Notes: generated by a model not told the origin, from the sequence alone. DNA of 64,000 nucleotides from Dehalococcoidia bacterium (GCA_034429715.1 DAOUFR010000011.1:1601-65600); one strand, 5' to 3'. Numbered from the stretch's first letter, positions 3,039 through 58,777 are shown. Made by a program: numbers and translations.

Positions 3039-3057
3039 GGTAACAATTGAATATGAA

Positions 3058-3335
3058 AAGGCTGTGAACGGGAATAGTAGGTCCTGCAGCAAAGGCCACA
3101 GAGAGTCAAGCAAGGTGAGAGTTGACGCCGGAGCAGGGATCGAATGGGCCCGGGAGCCGCAAACCGAAAGGGAAGTACCTGAGTAGGCTTTGACGCAGGG
3201 ATAGCGTAATCACAATCCAGGGTATCGCCGGCAACACGGCCGTACCTGACAGAGATGGTCCGGCAACGGACCAATAAGGGTGGCACCGCGAAGCTAAGCC
3301 TCTCGCCCCTTGGGTGAGAGGCTTTATTTATTGTA
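3058..3335 (+). ncRNA. T-box riboswitch, Trp specifier, with intrinsic terminator
   Basis: AGTA motif, apical AGAGA/GGTGAGA boxes, specifier GAA-TGG-G (TGG 3145-3147), stem III TGGTCCG-gcaa-CGGACCA, T-box AAGGGTGGCACCGCG (3276-3290), terminator AAGCCTCTC..GAGAGGCTT followed by a T-run. Confidence 0.92.
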
Positions 3336-6110: not shown

Positions 6111-9100
6111 CTAATCTTGTTTCTTGATGGACAGGGTGATCTCGAGCCCAGATAATTTGAACTTCTCGCTGTGCGCCGGCGGCTCGGCTGCCTTTTGAAG
6201 AATCTCCGTGGACAGCGTCTCCTGCCTGATATAATCGGCGAAATCCTTCATCACGGCCTGCACCTGCTCTCCGCCCTCGTAGTAGGTCCGGATATGGTCT
6301 GCGATCTCGAGGCCGGCGGACCTGCGCATCGTCTGCAGCCTTCTGACTATCTCCCTGGCAAGGCCCTCAGCCTGCAGCTCCGGGCTGATCTCCGTCACGA
6401 CGCCGACCTGGTAGTCGCCCTCAGCTATCACAGACAGGTTCTTGTCCTCTTTCATCTCTTCCTCTGTGAATCCCATGTCCTTGACGTTTAACTCGTCCGT
6501 GATCTGAGTGCATAGTTTCTGCAGCGCCTCCCTCTCATGAGACGACCTGGCCTTCACGATTACCTTCGGCAGGGGCTGTCTGACCTTGACAGCGCTCCTG
6601 GAGCGCGCCGCCCTTCCCATGCTGCAAACCTTCATAGCCAGCTCGGTGCCGGCGATTATATCCGTATCGATCAATTTCTCGTCCGCCACGGGGAACAGCG
6701 CCAGATGAACGCTCTCCGGCGCATCCTTATCAACCGTCCTGACCAGATTCTGATAGATCTCCTCCGCGACGAAGGGCGTGAAGGGCGCAAGCAGCTTGGC
6801 CAGCGTTACCAGCGCCTGGTAGAGCGTATGGTAGGCCGACAGCTTATCGTCGTCGTTCTGGCTCTTCCAGAAACGCCGCCGGCTGCGCCTGACGTACCAG
6901 TTCGACAGGTCGTTTACAAAGGACTCGATCTTCCGGCCGGCCCCGGTGGGATCATATTCGCCCAGCAGCCTATCTACATCGATTATCAGCTGGTTCAAGC
7001 TCGATATCAGCCACCTGTCCAGCTCCGACGTGATTTTGGGCGCTTTCTTTGCGGGAACGAAATTGTCGATGTTGGCGTAGATAACGAAGAACGAGTAGGT
7101 GTTCCATAGAGTCATGAGAAAGTTGCGCATGACCTCGACCACCATGTCGGGAGACATGCGCCTGACGTTGCCGGGAGGGCCGGAGGTAAACATATACCAG
7201 CGCAGCGCATCCGCGCCTGAGGAATCGAGAACGGTCCAGGGGTCCACCACGTTTCCCCTGGTCTTGCTCATCTTCTCCCCCTGCGCGTCCAGTATATGGC
7301 CCAGGCAGATGACGTTTTTAAAGCAGGGCTGGTCGAATATCAGTGTGGAAAGGGCGTGCAGGCTGTAGAACCATCCTCTCGTCTGGTCCACGGCCTCAGA
7401 TATGTAATCGGCAGGGAAGCTCTGCTTGAAGAGCTCGACATTCTCAAAGGGATAGTGCCACTGGGCAAAAGGCATGGCGCCCGAATCGAACCAGCAGTCG
7501 ATGACCTCGGGCTGCCTGACCATGGTATCGCCGCAGGCGGCGCAGGTGTAGGTGACGTCATCGATATACGGCCGGTGCAGGTCCATGCCGTCCGAGTAAC
7601 CCTGTAATCCGGATTTACTCTTGATCTCCTCCACTCCACCCGGGCATTCGTAACGCCCGCACTTGCGGCACACCCATATATTGAGGGGCGTACCCCAGTA
7701 TCTTTCACGTGAAAAGGCCCAGTCCACATTGTTGTTTAGCCAGTCGCCGAAGCGGCCCTCTTTGATGTGCTCGGGATACCAGTTTATCTGCCTGTTCCCG
7801 GCAATCATCTCGTCCTTTCTGGCGGAAGTCCTGATGTACCAGGTCTTCTTGGCGTAATAGACCAGGGGCGCGTCGCAGCGCCAGCAGAACGGATATGTAT
7901 GCGTGATTTTGACGGTCTTGTAGAGAAGGCCGCGCTTTTCGAGATCGGCCAGTATATCGGCATCGGCGTCTTTAACGAATTTTCCCGAAAATGAGTATGT
8001 GCCGGTGATATTGCCGGCCAGGTCCACCTGCTGTACGAAATCGAGATTGTTATCCAATCCGGCCTGGAAATCCACCTCGCCGAAAGCCGGCGCGATATGT
8101 ACTATGCCCGTGCCGTCCTCCATCGAGACGAAATCGGCGGTAATAATCTTATAGGTGAGGTCTTTAACCGGCTTCTGCACATCGAACTGCCCCGGCTGGC
8201 CTTCCTTTGCGCGCTTCCTTTCGACGCCATATTCGTGAGGGTTATACAGAGGGTAATAGAGCGAGCCTGCCAGCCGGCCTCCCTTGAACGTCTTGAGCAC
8301 GGGCAGGCCGCCCAGTCCGGCCTGATCAAGCAGGGCCTGCGCAAAGATCAGATACTCGTCATCCAGTGCGATAACGGCATAATCGGCATCCTCCGCCAGG
8401 GCCAGCGACGTATTGCCGGGAAGCGTCCAGGGGGTGGTCGTCCACGCCAGGAAGTAGACCTTACCCTTCGATACCGCATCCGCCAGCGTGAGACCGCCGG
8501 ATTTATCGGAAGCCACGGACGGCGGCAGTGTATGTATCCTGAACTTCACATACACGGACGGGTCGACCGTGTCATCCTTGTATCCGAGGGCCACCTCGTG
8601 TGAACTGAGTGAAGTACCGCAGCGCGGGCAGTGGGGTGTTACCTTGTAACCCTGATAGATCAGGTCCTTGTTCCAGAGCTGGTTGATACCCCACCAGCAT
8701 GATTCGATGTATGAATTGTCCAGCGTCACATAGGGATGGTCGATATCCAGCCAGAAACCGATCCTCTCGGTAAGGGAATCCCATTGTTTGAGATACTTGA
8801 ATACACTTTCTCGGCAGAGCGCGTTGAATTTGGCTACGCCGTATTCCTCGATCTGCGCCTTGCCTGTGAAACCGAGCTGTTTCTCGACCTCGAGCTCGAC
8901 CGGCAGGCCGTGCGTATCCCAGCCGGCCTTCCTGGGCACGCAGAACCCCTTCATGGTCTTATAGCGGGGTATCACATCTTTGAAGACGCGTGACAGGACA
9001 TGGTGGATGCCGGGATTGCCGTTGGCGGTGGGAGGACCTTCGTAAAAAATATATCTGGGTGAAGAAGATCTGGCGTCTATGCTCTGCTCGAAGATTTTCC

Positions 9101-9173
9101 TGTCGCGCCACAGTTCCAGAATTCTCCTCTCCAAATCAGGGAAGCTGACCTTGCTGTTAACGGGCTGGAACAT
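6111..9173 (-). CDS. ileS: Isoleucine--tRNA ligase, type 2 (IleRS2)
   Basis: EGPPTANGNPGIHH, WTTTPWTLPGN, DWAFSRERYWG, KMSKT; long IleRS2-type C-terminus without the IleRS1 zinc finger. Confidence 0.96.
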   Translation of the reverse strand: MFQPVNSKVSFPDLERRILELWRDRKIFEQSIDARSSSPRYIFYEGPPTANGNPGIHHVLSRVFKDVIPRYKTMKGFCVPRKAGWDTHGLPVELEVEKQLGFTGKAQIEEYGVAKFNALCRESVFKYLKQWDSLTERIGFWLDIDHPYVTLDNSYIESCWWGINQLWNKDLIYQGYKVTPHCPRCGTSLSSHEVALGYKDDTVDPSVYVKFRIHTLPPSVASDKSGGLTLADAVSKGKVYFLAWTTTPWTLPGNTSLALAEDADYAVIALDDEYLIFAQALLDQAGLGGLPVLKTFKGGRLAGSLYYPLYNPHEYGVERKRAKEGQPGQFDVQKPVKDLTYKIITADFVSMEDGTGIVHIAPAFGEVDFQAGLDNNLDFVQQVDLAGNITGTYSFSGKFVKDADADILADLEKRGLLYKTVKITHTYPFCWRCDAPLVYYAKKTWYIRTSARKDEMIAGNRQINWYPEHIKEGRFGDWLNNNVDWAFSRERYWGTPLNIWVCRKCGRYECPGGVEEIKSKSGLQGYSDGMDLHRPYIDDVTYTCAACGDTMVRQPEVIDCWFDSGAMPFAQWHYPFENVELFKQSFPADYISEAVDQTRGWFYSLHALSTLIFDQPCFKNVICLGHILDAQGEKMSKTRGNVVDPWTVLDSSGADALRWYMFTSGPPGNVRRMSPDMVVEVMRNFLMTLWNTYSFFVIYANIDNFVPAKKAPKITSELDRWLISSLNQLIIDVDRLLGEYDPTGAGRKIESFVNDLSNWYVRRSRRRFWKSQNDDDKLSAYHTLYQALVTLAKLLAPFTPFVAEEIYQNLVRTVDKDAPESVHLALFPVADEKLIDTDIIAGTELAMKVCSMGRAARSRSAVKVRQPLPKVIVKARSSHEREALQKLCTQITDELNVKDMGFTEEEMKEDKNLSVIAEGDYQVGVVTEISPELQAEGLAREIVRRLQTMRRSAGLEIADHIRTYYEGGEQVQAVMKDFADYIRQETLSTEILQKAAEPPAHSEKFKLSGLEITLSIKKQD

Positions 9174-13354: not shown

Positions 13355-13642
13355 TCAGCTATTCTCGCGAACGAACAGGTACCTTAATACATCCTCGGAC
13401 ATCTTCAAACCGGCATCAAGTTCTTTTAAAGCCGTCTGTTTGATCTGCACTTTTTCGAGCACGTAATTGCCTTCAGTCTGCTTCTTAATCGGGTAAGCAA
13501 ACCTTCTTTTTCCCCATTGATTCGTCTCCGTAACCGTTCCACCGAGCTTGGTTATCTGGTCGTTGACCTTTCCCAATACCCGGGTGAAATCATCTTCACT
13601 CAAGTCCGCATTCAGAATAAAAACCAGTTCGTAACCGGGCAC
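13355..13642 (-). CDS. rpsF: 30S ribosomal protein S6
   Basis: YELVFIL, WGKRRFAYPIKK, EDVLRYL; GTG start with GGAGG RBS. Confidence 0.95.
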   Translation of the reverse strand: MPGYELVFILNADLSEDDFTRVLGKVNDQITKLGGTVTETNQWGKRRFAYPIKKQTEGNYVLEKVQIKQTALKELDAGLKMSEDVLRYLFVRENS

Positions 13643-13701: not shown

Positions 13702-13723
13702 AAGCTTGAGCAAGTTGCGAAAC
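13702..13723 (+). repeat. Left inverted repeat of the island
   Basis: AAGCTTGAGCAAGTTGCGAAAC; its reverse complement matches 16560-16581 at 20/22 positions. Confidence 0.8.
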
Positions 13724-13741
13724 TGCCCATCATCTGCTCGG

Positions 13742-13939
13742 TCATTTATCATCATTTTCCTGCAATATCCTTAGCACCAATTTAATGCGTTTGATTTTGT
13801 TTTCCAGACTGTTAATTTCAGCCATATCATTTTTCACCCTTTTGTGGGCGATATAGACATTCCGCTCCTCATTCCCCAGGGTCTTTATTAGGTTTAAAAT
13901 TACATTATTTTGCAAATTTCCATTAAATGTACTTGACAT
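13742..13939 (-). CDS. Small hypothetical protein (65 aa) with a coiled-coil-like C-terminal half
   Basis: Strong AGGAGG RBS 5 nt before ATG; heptad-like MAEINSLENKIKRIKLVLRIL; divergent from the 161-aa ORF. Confidence 0.6.
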   Translation of the reverse strand: MSSTFNGNLQNNVILNLIKTLGNEERNVYIAHKRVKNDMAEINSLENKIKRIKLVLRILQENDDK

Positions 13940-13949
13940 TGTCTCCTCC

Positions 13950-13977
13950 TAATGTTATTATGAATGTACTAACATTA
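13950..13977. promoter_or_regulatory. Palindromic operator-like site between divergent island ORFs
   Basis: TAATGTTA-N12-TAACATTA; the related AATGTACT..ACATT motif also occurs at 13926-13940 and 13963-13976. Confidence 0.5.
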
Positions 13978-13996
13978 AACTATGGGGGTCGCATAA

Positions 13997-14482
13997 ATGA
14001 TGAAAGTAAATGATGATATTCAGAAGGGGTTGAAGGATGAATTGATAATATTGGAAGACAAACTTTTTCAAATTCAACAAAGGCTTAAGAAAGACCAGGC
14101 TGAGTTTGGCATTGCGAGTCGCAAATATGCCGCGATGAGAGATATGCTTACAAAATATTTGGGGCACAGCCCATATGTGCCTGATGCTAATTTTGATGGG
14201 CTTGAGCCTGTGTCGGATAGGGAGGATTTTTATGGTGGCTTTAGATTCATCTATATGCCTGTTGGAAAAGCGGTAATAACAGCGCTTAAAGAAGCTGACA
14301 CACCACTTTCCCTCGAAGAAATTGTTAAATGGCTTCAGACGGGTGGAGTTGAGCGAGAAGAAAGTTCCCTTATTCGCGCAGTAAATGCAGCACTTATTAA
14401 GACAAAGGGAATACAAAAGTCCAAGGATGGGAAATACTCGTACATACCAAGTGATGTTGAGCCAGATGATGTACCATTTTAA
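13997..14482 (+). CDS. Hypothetical protein: N-terminal coiled coil, winged-helix (HARE-HTH-like) domain, SSB-like acidic tail
   Basis: VITALKEADTPLSLEEIVKWLQTGG..LIRAVNAAL..GKYSY fits a wHTH pattern; ends DVEPDDVPF. Confidence 0.6.
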   Translation: MMKVNDDIQKGLKDELIILEDKLFQIQQRLKKDQAEFGIASRKYAAMRDMLTKYLGHSPYVPDANFDGLEPVSDREDFYGGFRFIYMPVGKAVITALKEADTPLSLEEIVKWLQTGGVEREESSLIRAVNAALIKTKGIQKSKDGKYSYIPSDVEPDDVPF

Positions 14483-14486
14483 TAAT

Positions 14487-14518
14487 GAGGAGTGGCGCTG
14501 ACACGCCACTCCTCGTTT
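14487..14518 (+). terminator. GC-rich hairpin (terminator or processing signal) just upstream of the tRNA
   Basis: GAGGAGTGGCG-ctgaca-CGCCACTCCTC is a perfect 11-bp stem with only a short GTTT tail; it ends 13 nt before tRNA position 1. Confidence 0.7.
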
Positions 14519-14527
14519 GCTATTCGT

Positions 14528-14600
14528 GGGGGCGTAGCTTAGTCGGCAAAGCAGCGAACTTAAAATTCGCTGGATACGGGTTCGAGTCCCGTCGCCTCCA
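14528..14600 (+). tRNA. Atypical tRNA: anticodon TAA (Leu) on a class I body with alanine acceptor identity (G3.U70, A73); CCA not encoded
   Basis: Cloverleaf: GGGGGCG/CGCCTCC acceptor, GCTT-AGTCGGCA-AAGC D arm, GCGAA-CTTAAAA-TTCGC anticodon arm, 5-nt variable loop TGGAT, ACGGG-TTCGAGT-CCCGT T arm, A73, then CTA. Confidence 0.88.
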
Positions 14601-14665
14601 CTATTTAGCCTAGTATTCTGGGTACTAGCAGCTGTAACTGAACTAGCACCCATTGTCTCGGAGGG

Positions 14666-15685
14666 ATGAGCTCCTTGACTACTTATTATGATAACGAATG
14701 CTCTGGAAATGTCAACACTGTACCAGTGGTCAGACAGCTTCATGCTGTATTTAATTCTATCCCAGATGCCGAACTGTTGACCGCTCTGAAGTCTCCAACC
14801 GGAAGACCAGGATATACCGTCAACATTCTCTGGAAGACTTATGTCGCAATGACCGTCCTCAACCTGCCGACATTTGCTGACCTGATAAGAACATTGCATA
14901 ACAATCCGTTTATTGCAATTGCATGTGGGATAACAAGCGAAAAGGACATACCGAGTAAATTTGCGTATTCCCGCTTTATTCGCAAGTTGTCTCAACCTGA
15001 TATCGTACCGATGGTAAAGAATGTATCTCGAAACCTTACTCGGCAACTCTATGAGAAAATTCCAGGTTTTGGCAAAAGTGTGGCAATAGACAGTACAGAT
15101 TTGAAAGCATGGTCGAACGGGGCTAAAAAGCCCGTTTCTGATAAGGATGCAACATGGGCGGTAAAACCGGATACTGCTGGCAAGAAGAAATATTTCTTTG
15201 GTTATAAGCTTCATCTTATGGCTGACACACAATGCGAAATCCCGATAGTAGCGAATGTGACAACCGCCTCTATCGCTGATGTCCGTGTAGCTAGTAGGGT
15301 ATTGAGCCATGCACGATTCGCAAATGGGGCTTTTCATCCTGAATATGTGATTTGCGATGCTGGATATTGCAGTAAGAGCTTGAGGCGATCGATAAAAAGA
15401 CAGTACAGGGCTGAGCCAATAATTAAAGTGAATCCCACGCACAAGAAATCTTTGTTTGTTGAGACTAAGGAATGGCAGCAAATTTACGGTAGGCGTACTG
15501 CCATTGAGCGCATGTTTAGTCGACTCAAGTTGTATAGGCGACTTAACAATATTACTGTTCGTGGTATTCGTAAAGTAACTGTTCATTGTTTTCTTTCATT
15601 AATTGTTACTCAAGCTCAAGCCTTTTATGCTTCATCAAATAATCAATTGGCTTCTGCTAGACAATGTGTTTACTCATCAGTCTAA
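14666..15685 (+). CDS. DDE transposase (IS4/IS5/IS1182-like; DUF772-type N-terminus plus DDE_Tnp_1-type domain)
   Basis: GRPGY.., VAIDST (D1), FFGYKLHL, ICDAGY (D2), RTAIERMFSRLK (E); GGAGG RBS. Confidence 0.88.
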   Translation: MSSLTTYYDNECSGNVNTVPVVRQLHAVFNSIPDAELLTALKSPTGRPGYTVNILWKTYVAMTVLNLPTFADLIRTLHNNPFIAIACGITSEKDIPSKFAYSRFIRKLSQPDIVPMVKNVSRNLTRQLYEKIPGFGKSVAIDSTDLKAWSNGAKKPVSDKDATWAVKPDTAGKKKYFFGYKLHLMADTQCEIPIVANVTTASIADVRVASRVLSHARFANGAFHPEYVICDAGYCSKSLRRSIKRQYRAEPIIKVNPTHKKSLFVETKEWQQIYGRRTAIERMFSRLKLYRRLNNITVRGIRKVTVHCFLSLIVTQAQAFYASSNNQLASARQCVYSSV

Positions 15686-15762
15686 GAAACCATGTTTTGA
15701 TAGGTGTATAATATTCATACTCGATTCCTCTTATAAGATTGATGTTGTCGGGAAGGAAGCAT

Positions 15763-16500
15763 ATGCATTCTTTTGATGGGGTCAATCTCAAAATCGTCAG
15801 GGTAAAGGAACAGATCGAAGCTTTCCGCAGAGATATTGAGTTGTTTCATACCTCTAAGCCCAAACCATGTGAAATCATTCCACATGGCGATACTAAAGGT
15901 CTTAACTATAGTCTTACCTATTGCATCAATCGACACCCCCCGAAAGAATGGGGTGTTCTTGCGGGTGAGATTGCTTATAACCTCCGATCCGCTCTCGACC
16001 ATTTGGCTTGGCAATTGGCATTGCTCAAGACCAATAATCCTTCTAGAAGTACTGAGTTTCCCATTTTTTACGATCAAGCCATATTCAATGATCCAGGAAA
16101 AGGGGTTAAGAATAAATGGAAGGATATACCTCTCTATATCCGACCTACTATCGAAAAGTTTCAACCTTACAATAGAGGAAAGTGGCCGGAACTTGAACTT
16201 CTTTGGTGTCTCCATGAAATTAATCGTATTGACAAGCATAGGGAAATTATCCCGTGTTTTCTTCAACCAAGGATCGGTATCAAAGGTGAGCAATTTGGTA
16301 CTTTTCAACCTATGAAATTGAACGATGGCGATACAATAACAGTCCTCAAATCTGAAGGTACAGCAAAATTGAAGATTATGGCAGAGATAGCGTTCGATGT
16401 CCCTGATTTCAGTTATCTCTTTCCCGCAATGGGTTTCTTGGGCATATATAAATTTATCAGCGATGAAGTAATCCCACGTTTCAAAGTCTTTTTCAAATGA
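15763..16500 (+). CDS. Hypothetical protein, putative HEPN-like RNase
   Basis: GEIAYNLRSALDHLAWQL, TEFPIF and LHEINRIDKHR resemble HEPN-type helical nucleases. Start placed at ATG 15763 (AAGGA RBS). Family assigned from memory of motifs only. Confidence 0.5.
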   Translation: MHSFDGVNLKIVRVKEQIEAFRRDIELFHTSKPKPCEIIPHGDTKGLNYSLTYCINRHPPKEWGVLAGEIAYNLRSALDHLAWQLALLKTNNPSRSTEFPIFYDQAIFNDPGKGVKNKWKDIPLYIRPTIEKFQPYNRGKWPELELLWCLHEINRIDKHREIIPCFLQPRIGIKGEQFGTFQPMKLNDGDTITVLKSEGTAKLKIMAEIAFDVPDFSYLFPAMGFLGIYKFISDEVIPRFKVFFK

Positions 16501-16559
16501 ATTAGCTGTAACCATTGGTATAACGATTTACTCCATATCTAGATATTTATTTACACAGG

Positions 16560-16581
16560 GTTTCGCAACTGCCTCAAGCTT
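16560..16581 (-). repeat. Right inverted repeat of the island
   Basis: GTTTCGCAACTGCCTCAAGCTT, inverted partner of 13702-13723. Confidence 0.8.
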
Positions 16582-16649: not shown

Positions 16650-17750
16650 ATGGAAATCAGCATTATAGGTTTGCCCGGCAGCGGAAAAACAACTGTTTTC
16701 GACGCTTTGACCAAATGTTCCGCCGAGCCCAGGCCGCACGGCGGCGCCGGGCTTACCCTGTTTCCGGCAGTAGCCAAGGTGCCGGACGCGCGCGTGATGA
16801 AGCTCAGCGATATCTTCCATCCCAAAAAGACTACACTGGCCGAGATAAAATACGTGGATTACGCCGGGCTTCCCAAAGGATTCGGCAGGGAGCAGGGGGT
16901 CAGCGGGCAGTTTCTCAACAGCCTCAGCACCTCGGATGCCATTCTGCAGGTCGTGAGAGCTTTCGAAGACGCGAATATACCCCATGTGGACGGGAGGATC
17001 GATCCGCTCAAAGACATCGAAACTCTGGACATGGAGCTCGTGTTCTCCGACCTGACCATCATCGAGAAACGGCTGGGACGCCTCGAATCAGCATTGAAAA
17101 TGGGGAAGTCCTCCGAGCGGGACGCGGCCGTCAAAGAGCAGGCGCTGCTCGGGAAAATCAAGGCTTCTCTGGACCAGGGAATCCCCATCAGGCTGCAAAA
17201 ATTGGCCGCAGACGAATTACGGGCGATCAGTAATTACCAGTTTTTGACGGCCAAGTCGATGCTGATCGTGATCAACATCGGCGAAAAGCAGTTGCCCGAG
17301 GCGGAAAGCATTCTTGGCACTCTTAAAGCAGCCTACTCCATGCCACAGGTGGAGCTCATCTCCATGTGCGGCAAACTGGAAAGGGAGCTGGCGCAACTGC
17401 AGGACGATGAGGCGGAGGAGTTCCGCAAGGATATCGGCCTCAAAGAAACCGCCTTCGCCGCTGTTATCAGACACTCTTATAGCCTGCTGGGTTTAATATC
17501 TTTCTTCACGGTGGGAGATGATGAGGTGAAGGCCTGGACTGTCAGGGAGAATACACCCGCCATCCAGGCGGCCGGCAAGATCCATACCGATATCGAGAGG
17601 GGTTTTATCAGGGCCGAGGTTATGAGCTATGACGATTTTATCAAGAGCGGGAGCACGGCCGAGGCGCGCAAGCACGGTTTACTGAGGCTGGAAGGTAAAA
17701 CCTATGCCGTGCGCGACGGGGATATCATGCATTTCCTGTTCAACGTATAA
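16650..17750 (+). CDS. ychF: Redox-regulated ATPase YchF (Obg family)
   Basis: IIGLPGSGKTT, DYAGL, NIGE, LISFFTVG, AGKIHTDIERGFIRAEV, DGDIMHFLFNV. Confidence 0.95.
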   Translation: MEISIIGLPGSGKTTVFDALTKCSAEPRPHGGAGLTLFPAVAKVPDARVMKLSDIFHPKKTTLAEIKYVDYAGLPKGFGREQGVSGQFLNSLSTSDAILQVVRAFEDANIPHVDGRIDPLKDIETLDMELVFSDLTIIEKRLGRLESALKMGKSSERDAAVKEQALLGKIKASLDQGIPIRLQKLAADELRAISNYQFLTAKSMLIVINIGEKQLPEAESILGTLKAAYSMPQVELISMCGKLERELAQLQDDEAEEFRKDIGLKETAFAAVIRHSYSLLGLISFFTVGDDEVKAWTVRENTPAIQAAGKIHTDIERGFIRAEVMSYDDFIKSGSTAEARKHGLLRLEGKTYAVRDGDIMHFLFNV

Positions 17751-56307: not shown

Positions 56308-57717
56308 TTAGATTGTATCCAAATTCTCTATCCCCTCTATTGGGCTGGCTGTGTCTTTATCTAGTATTTTTTGCGCAACTTTTTCTATTTTATCTTTGAA
56401 TTGATCTTTATTAATACCTGCGTCGTCTAGAATTGATAACATATGCTCTGCAACATTCTTTACTTGTTCCTCATTAGTAGCACCGAAAGCATCTCTGGGG
56501 GCTCTAGTTCCCAATGGCCATATATTATTCTGAATAAGGTGTGATATTTCTAATTCTGTAACTTTTTCTTTATGTATTTGGTGTTCCTCTATATCCTTAA
56601 AAATTGTGAGTGGTTGGCGTTCATATGGTTGTATATCATCATCCAAACCTAATAACACTCTGCAAAACGCTAAATGACCATAAAATATATTTTCCATTCG
56701 ATCATAATATGAAAGAGCATAAGCTAAATCTGCGCCGGAAAGAACCACCTTATAGCTATCTCCACTACGATATGCTGAAATGGCTGATACTATCTTCATA
56801 TCCCAGTCTTTTAGAGTACTTGAACTATCAAGGGAACGAAGCGATTGAACATCTTGAAATAGCTGTTTAAGTACTACGTGCAGTTTAGATTCTTGTAGAT
56901 TGCCTGAAGTACGATCGAAAGTTAGAAATATTCCTTGATGTAATGCAGCTTCGATGATCTTTGTACTTAATTCCTGTCCGCTTGTTCTACCTATAAGCGC
57001 CATACCCAACGGTAATACTAGATCATCCACCACTTCAATTTGTTTATAGATATCTTTGGCTGAAATATTCAGTTGTTTTCTCACTTTACTCATGTAATGA
57101 TGAGGTAGAAATACACTGGTACGTCTACGACTTACGAGATGTGTAAGATTCAATAATAATTCTGATAACAAAGAATATCTAATCTGTTTCTCCACTAGAT
57201 TTCTACCCAAGTTCATCCTATTGGATAAAGATTCCATCAATTCCTTAAAATCATTAAAACGAGTTAGCCAACTTGGTGCACCCTCTATATCTGGTTGTTG
57301 AATTTCTTCAATAAATGACTTTAAATGTTTTGGATCATCAATACCTGATGCTAATTGTTTCTTGCGTGTATTTTGAAGTAACATCTCCGTATCTCTTCGT
57401 AAATAGAAGAATAATCGTGGTCGCTGCGACGACATGAATGCATTTCTTGCCACTCTATATTCCTGTCGTGTTATCGAAACTCCTTCTTCAAATAGGCTCC
57501 CCCTTGTATTGCCTACTAGTAATATATAGTAGTCACAGTTATTGATATTCTCGAAGCATTCATCAAATGCTGTGCGGTCACCTTTAATATCAAAATCAGA
57601 GGCTTCTGATTGATACACAATAAATCCTTGCTCATTTAACGTAAAAGATATTGCTGATCTCAGATCACGAAATTCTTTGATAGTTGACGAGATAAATATA
57701 GAGGGTTGATTACTCAC
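56308..57717 (-). CDS. DUF4062 (TIR/nucleoside deoxyribosyltransferase-like) domain protein with an unknown C-terminal region
   Basis: IFISSTIKEFRDLR..CFENINNCDYYILLVG..GS..SITRQEY matches the DUF4062 signature; GTG start with GGAGG RBS. Confidence 0.82.
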   Translation of the reverse strand: MSNQPSIFISSTIKEFRDLRSAISFTLNEQGFIVYQSEASDFDIKGDRTAFDECFENINNCDYYILLVGNTRGSLFEEGVSITRQEYRVARNAFMSSQRPRLFFYLRRDTEMLLQNTRKKQLASGIDDPKHLKSFIEEIQQPDIEGAPSWLTRFNDFKELMESLSNRMNLGRNLVEKQIRYSLLSELLLNLTHLVSRRRTSVFLPHHYMSKVRKQLNISAKDIYKQIEVVDDLVLPLGMALIGRTSGQELSTKIIEAALHQGIFLTFDRTSGNLQESKLHVVLKQLFQDVQSLRSLDSSSTLKDWDMKIVSAISAYRSGDSYKVVLSGADLAYALSYYDRMENIFYGHLAFCRVLLGLDDDIQPYERQPLTIFKDIEEHQIHKEKVTELEISHLIQNNIWPLGTRAPRDAFGATNEEQVKNVAEHMLSILDDAGINKDQFKDKIEKVAQKILDKDTASPIEGIENLDTI

Positions 57718-57760
57718 AATTTAGTACCTCCCAAATCTCTCTCAAATATTTTAACGACGT

Positions 57761-58777
57761 CTACGGGTTACTTTCTCTGAAGTATTTCTCAATATCCATA
57801 TTCCAAACGTAAAATGCTAATACAATTGATACCCAGTCAATTGTTGGAATATCAAAATCTGTTTGGAATATTTTCACTCGTTTGCCTATTTTACCCATGT
57901 TACGAACATGTGTTGTATAACGTTGTTCAATCTCTTGAATAGAATATATTCTTATTGCACCATCGCAGTGTATGAATCGAGGATTGTCTGGTACATAAAT
58001 GCCATGAAAATAGCGGCTTCCTCTTATACTTACTAGTTCTTTTTTAGGTAACTCTTCACAGATAAAATGTATTTCGTTATCTCTCGGAGCCCAAACTAAA
58101 TCTGTAAATTCAACATCAGGCTGAAAGCCATGATTTGGAAGCCATTTCATATGACGATCTTCTTTTAGACTACTAATATCCTGCCAATCAAGTTCCTTAC
58201 CATAAACCCACATCTTATATTCCGTGGGCCTATAGGTTGATGCCTCTTGCACCATTAATGGATCTAATCTGATTCTTATTTCTCCCTGTTTGGCAAGGCG
58301 AAACAGAATATGCGATAACCAATATACTGAATTTATTGAGTAGGCAATTGAAGGAAGAATCTGAAATACTGTGGAACCTCTTTTTAAATAACGCAAAGAG
58401 GTATCAAATTCACTCAATCTAACCAAGCAATTATTATCCAGTTCTATCCCATTCAGATTGGGATGGTCGTATGGCTTAATTTGAGGTGAATTTTTGCTGG
58501 TTTTCAGTAGCGAAATCCTTTTAGTAGCAATAGCTCTATCGATGAAATGACCTATTACCCAATTCACATCAATGTCGCCGTGCAAGTTTGCCAATTCTTT
58601 ATACCAGGAAGGTTGATATTGCCGATCTAGAGTATTAATTTGCGTTAAACGCTTCGACAACTCGCGAAGCATCCTGCCTACTTTAGAATTCTGTTTAATG
58701 TTTTCTGCTATCAGAAATACACTTGAGGTATCGGATGTACTAAAGTAATCAACTATTTCACTTGGAATCTCTATCAT
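57761..58777 (-). CDS. Hypothetical protein (338 aa) with a conserved-looking polar C-terminal motif cluster
   Basis: Long ORF in AT-rich DNA, co-oriented with the DUF4062 gene 43 nt downstream; SRYFHGIY..HCDGAIRIY..HVR..GK motif. Confidence 0.7.
   Translation of the reverse strand: MIEIPSEIVDYFSTSDTSSVFLIAENIKQNSKVGRMLRELSKRLTQINTLDRQYQPSWYKELANLHGDIDVNWVIGHFIDRAIATKRISLLKTSKNSPQIKPYDHPNLNGIELDNNCLVRLSEFDTSLRYLKRGSTVFQILPSIAYSINSVYWLSHILFRLAKQGEIRIRLDPLMVQEASTYRPTEYKMWVYGKELDWQDISSLKEDRHMKWLPNHGFQPDVEFTDLVWAPRDNEIHFICEELPKKELVSIRGSRYFHGIYVPDNPRFIHCDGAIRIYSIQEIEQRYTTHVRNMGKIGKRVKIFQTDFDIPTIDWVSIVLAFYVWNMDIEKYFRESNP

Follow-up and report, generated by a model that had tools for sequence, protein, structure and literature searches.

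A stretch of 64,000 nucleotides from a Dehalococcoidia genome (GCA_034429715.1, DAOUFR010000011.1:1601-65600; hereafter the window, whose own coordinates are used throughout) contains an intact insertion sequence (IS) of 2.87 kb at 13708-16575, and within it lies a tRNA gene that combines the anticodon UAA with the acceptor-stem set recognised by alanyl-tRNA synthetase (AlaRS). That a real and unusual hybrid tRNA resides on a mobile element stands; its function is unproven. We tentatively favour, at slightly less than even confidence, a transposon-borne missense tRNA, which would be charged with alanine, would place Ala at UUA and probably at UUG codons, and would be released from the transcript that runs from orfB, the gene upstream, into the transposase gene.

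The tRNA gene occupies 14528-14600 on the plus strand, is of class I and encodes no CCA, by ARAGORN, Rfam and direct reading. An initial annotation of the window had described a tRNA(UAA) with the AlaRS identity set, and this is borne out for the tRNA and its acceptor stem: ARAGORN labels the gene Leu-TAA and Rfam aligns it over its full length (73.2 bits, E 4e-14). Direct, script-checked reading gives a 7-bp acceptor stem (GGGGGCG/CGCCTCC) with G1:C72, G2:C71, G3:U70 and G4:C69, followed by A73. The remaining arms are a 4-bp D-stem, an anticodon stem GCGAA/UUCGC with the loop CUUAAAA, a 5-nt variable loop and a T arm ACGGG-UUCGAGU-CCCGU. Judged by the features of RF00005 (7-bp acceptor stem, 5-bp T stem, D and anticodon arms, 7-nt loop with U33, and U8, A14, G18G19 and T54-Psi55-C56), it is a canonical elongator tRNA, a 7/5 cloverleaf with all stems paired that is recovered when the leader of the transposase gene is folded freely.

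AlaRS charges tRNAs that present G3:U70 in a G1-G4/A73 acceptor stem whatever their anticodon, and in E. coli tRNA-Ala the supporting set consists of A73, G2:C71, G4:C69 and G20. G3:U70 is present in the window tRNA and in those of the related loci L002, L023, L024 and L026; the other tRNAs found in the same slot of the family have G3:C70. The window tRNA also has A73, G1:C72, G2:C71 and G4:C69, with C rather than G at position 20. Bacterial tRNA-Leu belongs to class II, with a long variable arm, a 3-bp D-stem and a Leu-type D-loop. The window tRNA departs from it in its 5-nt variable loop, its 4-bp D-stem and its D-loop, AGUCGGCA in place of a Leu-type loop resembling GGAAUUGGUAGAC. Its closest database similarities are to suppressor, Trp and Arg tRNAs of phages, which points to a non-Ala body. 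Since the G3:U70 stem fits the AlaRS rules and the class I body is unlike tRNA-Leu, we infer charging with Ala and Leu-to-Ala decoding. Neither AlaRS nor leucyl-tRNA synthetase (LeuRS) takes account of the anticodon (PMC10543346, PMC11028032).

Were the gene an ordinary tRNA-Leu(UAA) meeting the demand of an AT-rich element for a rare codon, as many phage tRNAs do, this would account for the ARAGORN label, which follows the anticodon, and would agree with A73 and the composition of the element. We regard this as scarcely credible, given the class I body, 5-nt variable loop, 4-bp D-stem and G3:U70. In addition, the element scarcely uses TTA, and among its relatives TTA-rich cargo genes occur in elements without a UAA tRNA, the opposite of what supply would predict.

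The combination is rare. A strict pattern (class I, UAA, GGGG...U70-C-C-A73) matched one of 185,579 species genomes and two metagenome records, and in the viral collections there was neither a contig with a pattern match nor a relative of the transposase. The pattern demanded U70, a 5' GGGG and TCC in the T-loop, so that its matches have U70 by construction, and it skipped L023, L024 and L026 because one T-loop base differs (the L023 T-loop reads GAGGCC). These three further UAA copies were reached through the orfB homologue. The metagenome match L002 is a hairpin-tRNA-transposase unit with a different helix-turn-helix (HTH) gene upstream. Class I UAA tRNAs with G3:U70, for which the initial annotation had called for a search, thus occur in sister copies, with no fixed pairing with orfD, the last gene of the element.

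The other two pattern matches lie outside the family and serve as leads only. L001:295-469, from a Parcubacteria metagenome-assembled genome (PKTI01000036.1), holds two adjacent class I tRNAs with Leu anticodons, both with A73 and an encoded CCA; the UAA tRNA has G3:U70 and G5:U68, and the CAA tRNA has C at position 37 and an A1:U72 acceptor stem. L003:1433-1508 (Ga0302325_10587162, high-GC) is a class I tRNA(UAA) with G3:U70 directly next to which, on the opposite strand, an rve-type (IS481/IS3-like) element ends; TTA would be expected to be very rare in so GC-rich an organism.

The insertion sequence and its family

The block had been described as bounded by 22-bp inverted repeats. Repeat arms are indeed present at 13702-13723 and 16560-16581 (20 of 22 positions complementary, 91%), but the true inverted repeat (IR) is 16 bp long and abuts a 6-bp target-site duplication (TSD). 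The left IR (13708-13723, GAGCAAGTTGCGAAAC) and the right IR (16560-16575, GTTTCGCAACTGCCTC) are complementary at 14 of 16 positions. The TSD (13702-13707 and 16576-16581), recognised by sequence reading and by analogy with the 6-bp duplications of complete relatives, is AAGCTT, and because it is a palindrome it lengthened the 16-bp IR to an apparent 22 bp. The unit that moves thus spans 13708-16575, with the four open reading frames (ORFs) and the tRNA all between its IRs. It is inserted between rpsF (13355-13642, minus strand) and ychF (16650-17750), both Pfam-confirmed, in a Dehalococcoidia-type genome. The AT-rich character noted earlier is clear, with a GC content of ~0.37-0.47 inside against ~0.50-0.59 in the flanks.

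Genomic context was retrieved for eight transposase homologues and one orfB homologue. Every two-ended relative examined has 16-bp IRs of the type GAGCTTGTTGCGAAAC (left) and GTTTCGCAACAAGCTC (right), flanked by a 6-bp direct repeat: GTATTT in L004 and L013, TGTATC in L014/L015, TATATT in L021 and AAATAC in the inverted L023. Complete copies occupy five insertion sites with different neighbours in each case, and it is the 16-bp IRs together with the 6-bp duplications at these five sites that show the whole unit to move. A transposase between terminal IRs, a TSD and copies at several sites identify a DDE insertion sequence of the IS4/IS5 superfamily. A tRNA gene serving as a chromosomal insertion target outside the element is ruled out, since both IRs lie well outside the tRNA, which travels with the element to different sites. 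At one site, the prfA-MCP intergenic region, L004 and L023 share the same duplication (GTATTT/AAATAC) in opposite orientation; their transposases are 92% identical, and both their slot tRNAs (UUG and UAA, respectively) and their cargo differ. A solo IR-like sequence lies just beyond the right end of L023.

Family members measure 2.6-4 kb and have a fixed layout, common to L004, L013, L014, L020, L021 and L023 at different genomic places: IR, a small minus-strand ORF, a DNA-binding ORF, hairpin 1, a tRNA slot with hairpin 2, a DDE transposase, a cargo slot and IR. In the window the order is orfA (minus strand), orfB, hairpin 1, tRNA, hairpin 2, transposase and orfD. The small gene orfA (13742-13939) encodes 65 aa without a family match and reads outward to the left end; relatives have an ORF of 59-74 aa here, in some cases HTH_17. 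A promoter-like site, TTGACA-17-TATTAT with a TG extension (13933-13961, plus strand, 11/12 by consensus match only), precedes orfB (13997-14482, plus strand), which encodes 161 aa and ends in TAA TAA TGA.

The winged-helix assignment previously given to orfB agrees with its AlphaFold model (pLDDT 79.5), in which a long N-terminal helix would precede a C-terminal domain of three helices and two strands; Foldseek relates the model to Rok, forkhead and Fur/Zur winged helices with probability 0.99-1.0. The ten homologues of orfB all come from Dehalococcoidia/Chloroflexi, and in other copies HTH_17 proteins replace it.

The transposase (14675-15685, plus strand) has 336 aa from a conserved TTG start (an in-frame ATG at 14666 would give 339 aa). 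Its identification as a transposase is secure (DDE_Tnp_1, E 2e-23). It is IS5/IS1182-like and falls below every NCBIfam equivalog cut-off (IS1182, 122 bits against 270; IS5_4, 79 bits against 140), and so is not assigned to IS5, IS1182, IS982 or IS4. It has ~400 homologues, the named ones being from Dehalococcoidia or Chloroflexota; exact-sequence look-ups for orfB, the transposase and orfD returned no record.

The tRNA slot, its transcript and selection

Substitution patterns indicate that the UAA tRNA is maintained. The tRNAs of the window, L023 and L002 are 92-95% identical, while the third codon positions of their transposases are ~51% identical. The three UAA copies score 73, 70 and 64 bits in Rfam, and the host tRNA-Asp 64 bits. 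All seven single substitutions lie in the D, variable or T loops, where only 31 of the 73 positions are unpaired; the chance of this is (31/73)^7, or ~0.0025, with the one compensatory pair not yet counted. That pair, 31:39, changed from A-U to U-A and is the sole stem change. Because changes are limited to loops or to a compensatory pair, the fold is under purifying selection, and G3:U70, U33 and the 7-nt anticodon loop are unchanged in all UAA copies across diverged elements. For the UAA type, the substitution pattern and the Rfam scores lead us to reject a decayed or hitch-hiking pseudogene; for L004 that reading is still plausible.

Between hairpin 1 and the transposase, relatives either have an empty slot or carry the UAA tRNA with G3:U70, a Glu-type body whose anticodon is UUG or UUA, or a Leu-type body whose anticodon is GUA. 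The tRNAs of L004 and L013 have the loop CCUUGAA (anticodon UUG) with C33, and both have C54; L013 scores 51 bits in Rfam, and L004, in which a T-stem pair is mismatched, lies below the threshold. L014-L018 have the loop CCUUAAA, again with C33, whose anticodon UUA would read ochre. ARAGORN labels this tRNA (L014:3353-3427, likewise in L015-L018) tRNA-Stop, and three of the four genes of that element end in TGA, the fourth in TAA TAA. The UUG and UUA tRNAs share U11:A24, U13:G22 and a 4-nt variable loop, and a search of E. coli genomes with the L014 tRNA matched only tRNA-Glu, with weak E-values of 0.2-0.6. The slot of L021 (2850-2935) holds an 86-nt class II tRNA with the Tyr anticodon GUA. 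Its matches in the phage collection are tRNA-Leu genes (best 83% identity, E 2e-13), BLAST against E. coli genomes gave no match, and it is predicted to place Leu at Tyr codons. The cargo region of L021 also contains a nested IS3-type insertion (HTH_Tnp_1 and rve). Both the tRNA and hairpin 2 are absent from L010-L012 and L020, whose transposases are intact.

All slot tRNAs share the acceptor start GGGGGC and A73. The acceptor stem of the family differs from the Ala set by a single change, C70 to U. Since each of the three bodies bears an anticodon that does not match it, the mismatch between anticodon and identity looks like a property of the slot, and the mismatches of sister elements lend weight to the idea that miscoding is encoded. 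A broader proposal, that this family of Dehalococcoidia IS elements maintains a selected slot, on the transposase transcript and upstream of that gene, for deliberately mismatched tRNAs (Ala/UUA, Glu-type/CAA or UAA-stop, Leu-type/UAY), is one that we consider doubtful. If it were true, transposons would spread switchable missense and nonsense suppression, the target of which could be the A-ending codons of AT-rich invaders, in company with the defence genes of the adjacent cargo slot.

Expression of the tRNA would depend on the transposase transcript. We envisage that orfB, the tRNA and the transposase are transcribed together from the near-consensus orfB promoter, that hairpin 1 (14484-14517, plus strand, a 14-bp stem formed by GAGGAGTGGCG...CGCCACTCCTC directly after the orfB stop) attenuates read-through, and that RNase P and 3' processing would free the tRNA. 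With a single transcript, output of the tRNA would track transcription of the transposase. AlaRS would then most likely charge the tRNA, which would compete with host tRNA-Leu at UUA and probably at UUG. Hairpin 1 is kept in all family members, those lacking a tRNA included, and is predicted to be a weak terminator or an element controlling the ribosome-binding site. Hairpin 2 (14620-14651, plus strand, GGGTACTAG...CTAGCACCC) occurs only in tRNA-bearing copies. The 197-nt leader folds into hairpin 1, the tRNA, hairpin 2 and a partly paired Shine-Dalgarno sequence (GGAGGG, 14660-14665, plus strand), with z = -4.9 relative to shuffled sequences.

The main rival role is that of a cis-acting module for RNA processing and regulation, for which the tRNA would chiefly be retained: cleavage by RNase P/RNase Z would free the transposase mRNA from orfB or read-through transcripts, hairpin 2 would guard the new 5' end, and decoding would be incidental, weak or absent. 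As any tRNA shape would do, bodies and anticodons could be exchanged or drift. We judge this explanation unlikely. In its favour, gain or loss affects the tRNA and hairpin 2 as one module, the slot takes bodies with no relation to one another (Ala-like of class I, Glu-like, and Leu-like of class II), and translation looks compromised in some members (C33; C54 in L004 and L013; the T-stem mismatch of L004). The whole leader is conserved like the tRNA (85-95%), its folding and partly paired Shine-Dalgarno sequence would suit such control, and the tRNA closely follows a hairpin without a promoter of its own. RNase P and RNase Z do not need the anticodon arm, an acceptor/T-arm minihelix being sufficient. 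The anticodon arm nevertheless stays paired through many different sequences, by compensatory changes in every type, and the UAA type retains U33, the 7-nt loop and G3:U70 across diverged elements. A cognate anticodon would be the easiest harmless state for a processing signal, yet none of the three body types has one, and the copies without a tRNA cope with hairpin 1 alone.

An antisense promoter-like site, TTGACA-16-TATCAT (14688-14715, minus strand, 11/12), lies within the 5' end of the transposase gene, identified by consensus match and with its hexamers in conserved codons. If active, it would produce antisense RNA covering the start of the transposase gene, hairpin 2 and the tRNA.

Codon usage, cargo and the host

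The initial annotation proposed that UUA is recoded as Ala in a codon-bias-based defence or addiction system, perhaps coupled to a HEPN RNase, with the element's own genes protected by avoiding TTA. The avoidance itself is real, with TTA at 1 of the 61 Leu codons of the three plus-strand genes where ~10 would be expected from their own composition (P = 1.6e-4), but it is not tied to the tRNA. CTA is absent from the same 61 codons (P = 8e-6), although the genes make free use of other codons that end in A. As a UAA anticodon cannot read CUA, the tRNA cannot account for the CTA half of the bias. Element-wide, TTA accounts for 2 of 69 Leu codons and TTG is the commonest (24/69); a tRNA with U34 normally reads TTG too.

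The core genes of relatives (orfB-like and transposase) contain 0-1 TTA each whether the slot holds UUG, UUA, GUA or nothing. Islands that lack the tRNA and use TTA normally had been named as grounds for abandoning the defence model; relatives without the tRNA do exist, but their core genes share the same avoidance. Most relatives have exactly one TTA in the transposase gene. In the window it is at 15599-15601, codon 309 of 336 (…FLS-L-IVTQ…), and the position is the same in L004 and L010. Cargo genes differ more sharply, with TTA at 1 of 76 Leu codons beside UAA tRNAs and at 37 of 128 in elements with another tRNA or none (Fisher P = 1e-7). The same contrast holds for CTA, and it therefore reads as host-adapted against newly acquired cargo. 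As CTA is equally avoided and relatives without the UAA tRNA share the bias, self-protection is rejected as a specific signal.

The host was thought to be GC-rich and sparing with TTA. At ~53% GC it uses TTA for 5.8% of Leu codons (5.5 per 1000 codons), but 39 of 46 host genes contain the codon. TAA is the commonest host stop codon. Leu282 of YchF is encoded by TTA and is Leu in all three aligned solved homologues; TTA at this invariant position implies that UUA means Leu in the host genome, and reassignment of UUA to Ala in the host is rejected on this ground. The suggestion that AT-rich phage or plasmid genes would be hit harder than the host survives in part, since the rate of TTA per codon is about six-fold lower in the host than in AT-rich foreign genes, but the 39 TTA-containing host genes would be exposed. 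A second AT-rich patch in the window (56308-58777, minus strand; GC 0.36, GC at third codon positions 0.26-0.31) encodes a 469-aa DUF4062 protein and a 338-aa protein without a family, with TTA at 28 of 82 Leu codons; neither protein has a PADLOC match.

The claim of a HEPN-like product concerned orfD (15763-16500, plus strand, 245 aa), the cargo-slot protein, which has homologues, an AlphaFold model and the motifs NLRSALDH and DKH(R). Only its Rx4H motif recalls HEPN, and there was no family or fold match in Pfam, NCBIfam, PADLOC, PDB profiles or Foldseek-PDB, nor a family match in PHROG. Within the RSALDH motif R75 is present in 42 of 44 homologues and H80 in 37 (Q in six), and DKH is invariant; in the AlphaFold model (pLDDT 91) Rx4H sits in the second long helix, not the last. 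None of 495 homologues has a Pfam domain, and there is a viral structural match in BFVD (A0A514TZW7, E 2e-9). Kinship with HEPN or DUF4145 is rejected on present evidence (hhalign of orfD against the DUF4145 protein, probability 0.1%); on the strength of its conserved RSALDH and DKH motifs, orfD may still be a divergent HEPN protein. It is also uncoupled from the tRNA: L010 has a close copy of orfD in a tRNA-less element, and a 58% homologue at L028:3501-4232 (and L029-L036) is a solitary gene flanked by tsaD and pdxS, and neither a transposase nor IRs nor a tRNA lies nearby.

The content of the cargo slot varies among copies. L004 and L014 encode 201-202-aa zinc-finger and DUF4145 proteins that match PADLOC PD-T7-4, and L013 has a PDC-S45 match. 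PD-T7-4 is RAZR, a HEPN RNase that cuts tRNA, rRNA and mRNA upon phage infection (PMC13017515). Since sister slots hold defence genes, orfD is by position a candidate of the same kind.

Several observations would suit recoding as defence: an Ala-identity tRNA bears the UAA anticodon, the element and the cargo beside UAA tRNAs are poor in TTA while foreign genes in the window are rich in it, the slot anticodons UAA, UUA and UUG read A-ending codons that are rarer in the host, and sister cargo includes PD-T7-4/RAZR and PDC-S45. We nonetheless hold this model to be improbable; its coupling to a HEPN protein finds no support, and nothing points to addiction or phage defence brought about by the tRNA itself. 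The depletion of CTA along with TTA, in cargo genes too, looks like adaptation to the host tRNA pool, relatives share the bias in their core genes, TTG is the commonest Leu codon of the element, and TTA pervades host genes and TAA host stops. The HEPN identity of orfD is unsupported and orfD occurs without the tRNA. Types of tRNA, left module and cargo assort independently among copies, with no toxin/antitoxin pairing, unlike a toxin-antitoxin or addiction system.

The same independence bears on a link between the tRNA and RNA-cleaving defence cargo, for which the tRNA would provide a nuclease-resistant spare, act as a decoy or work as an RNA antidote, in each case against a HEPN-type RNase in the cargo slot. 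The RAZR-like proteins of sister copies and the known theme of phage tRNAs replacing cleaved host tRNAs would favour such a link, which we consider very improbable. There is no fixed pairing: DUF4145 proteins accompany UUG (L004) and UUA (L014), orfD accompanies UAA (window, L024) or no tRNA (L010), and a third cargo accompanies UAA (L023). A spare would moreover be expected to keep matching identity and anticodon.

The proposal of an Ala-charged missense tRNA itself has to be set against the following: (i) a tRNA reading UUA and UUG would strike 39 of 46 host genes as well as the element's own TTG-rich genes; (ii) position 20 is C instead of the G20 that aids E. coli AlaRS, and as A73 is the main determinant for LeuRS as well, some charging with Leu may occur; (iii) only 10 nt separate hairpin 1 from the tRNA, which leaves no room for a sigma-70 promoter, and expression may therefore be very low; (iv) the transposase tree is not congruent with tRNA type, L023 (UAA) being 92% identical to L004 (UUG) and the window 90% to tRNA-less L010, so that modules have been swapped between copies and part of the UAA tRNA identity may reflect recent exchange, though the substitution pattern still speaks for a constrained fold; (v) two lineages have lost the tRNA and hairpin 2 with the transposase intact, and the tRNA is therefore dispensable for the element; (vi) the C33 of the Glu-type tRNAs and the sub-threshold score of L004 imply that some slot tRNAs may not decode.

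Elsewhere in the window a T-box leader (3055-3313, 104 bits) lies upstream of a gene for a 456-aa pyridoxal-phosphate-dependent enzyme (PALP), and a gene for an isoleucyl-type class I tRNA synthetase is located nearby (6111-9173, minus strand).

Relation to known systems

To our knowledge, naturally encoded mistranslating tRNAs are limited to a few cases (tRNAProX, allo-tRNAs and Sec/Cys hybrids) whose purpose is unsettled. The window tRNA has a canonical shape, would need only the housekeeping AlaRS, is kept by selection and travels beside a slot that in sister copies holds phage-defence genes. If it is charged with Ala, mobile elements can carry tRNAs that alter the code, and the IS would offer a compact 2.9-kb system for asking why such tRNAs persist. 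If it is instead a processing signal for the transposase mRNA, it would represent a new way for an IS to control its transposase.

As an IS, the element resembles transporter IS and IS5/IS1182-like elements in its DDE_Tnp_1 transposase, short IRs, target duplication and extra genes within the IRs, and differs from the named families in that its transposase lies under all NCBIfam equivalog cut-offs. In our literature search we met no described IS that has a tRNA gene among its conserved internal parts, and searches on suppressor or hybrid tRNAs, whether of insertion sequences or of Dehalococcoidia, yielded nothing relevant. The likeness to RAZR/PD-T7-4 extends to the DUF4145 match in the cargo slots of L004 and L014; orfD of the window is unrelated. 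Phage suppressor tRNAs are likewise carried by mobile elements and have stop-reading anticodons; the window tRNA is 77% identical to an amber suppressor of T5-like Aeromonas phages, and the L014 anticodon is of the ochre type. The phage tRNAs serve phages that have recoded stop codons or large tRNA sets, whereas here the carrier is an IS of 2.6-4 kb; no in-frame stops were seen in the genes of the element.

Other comparable systems are bacterial tRNAs of mixed identity. Allo-tRNAs are rare bacterial tRNAs with a mismatch between anticodon and identity, some of which insert Ala, Ser or Cys in E. coli as their identity elements dictate; they are defined by an 8/4 or 9/3 acceptor/T-stem (a 12-bp branch), were mainly attributed to Acidobacteria and others, and often lie near toxin-antitoxin genes or transposon remnants (Mukai et al. 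2017, PMC5389517). The window tRNA shares with them the mismatch, the range of anticodons and the association with toxin-antitoxin genes or transposons, but it is 7/5 rather than 8/4 or 9/3 and occupies a fixed slot upstream of the transposase in an intact IS. The tRNAProX/ProRSx pairs of Streptomyces and Kitasatospora join Pro identity to an Ala, Asn or Thr anticodon and require a synthetase paralogue of their own (reviewed in PMC11415595). The likeness lies in a genetically encoded, dual-identity bacterial tRNA that mistranslates sense codons; in contrast, the window element is transposon-borne, has no synthetase gene and bears an Ala-type acceptor stem, for which the housekeeping AlaRS would suffice.

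In yeast and human tRNA-Ala anticodon variants, too, G3:U70 directs AlaRS whatever the anticodon, placing Ala at other codons (PMC10543346, PMC12084884). Those are engineered or sporadic eukaryotic point variants, whereas the window tRNA has a non-Ala body and is maintained by selection in a bacterial mobile element. An encoded tRNA of hybrid identity is thus of a known kind; what would be new here is its canonical shape and its being built into a transposon.

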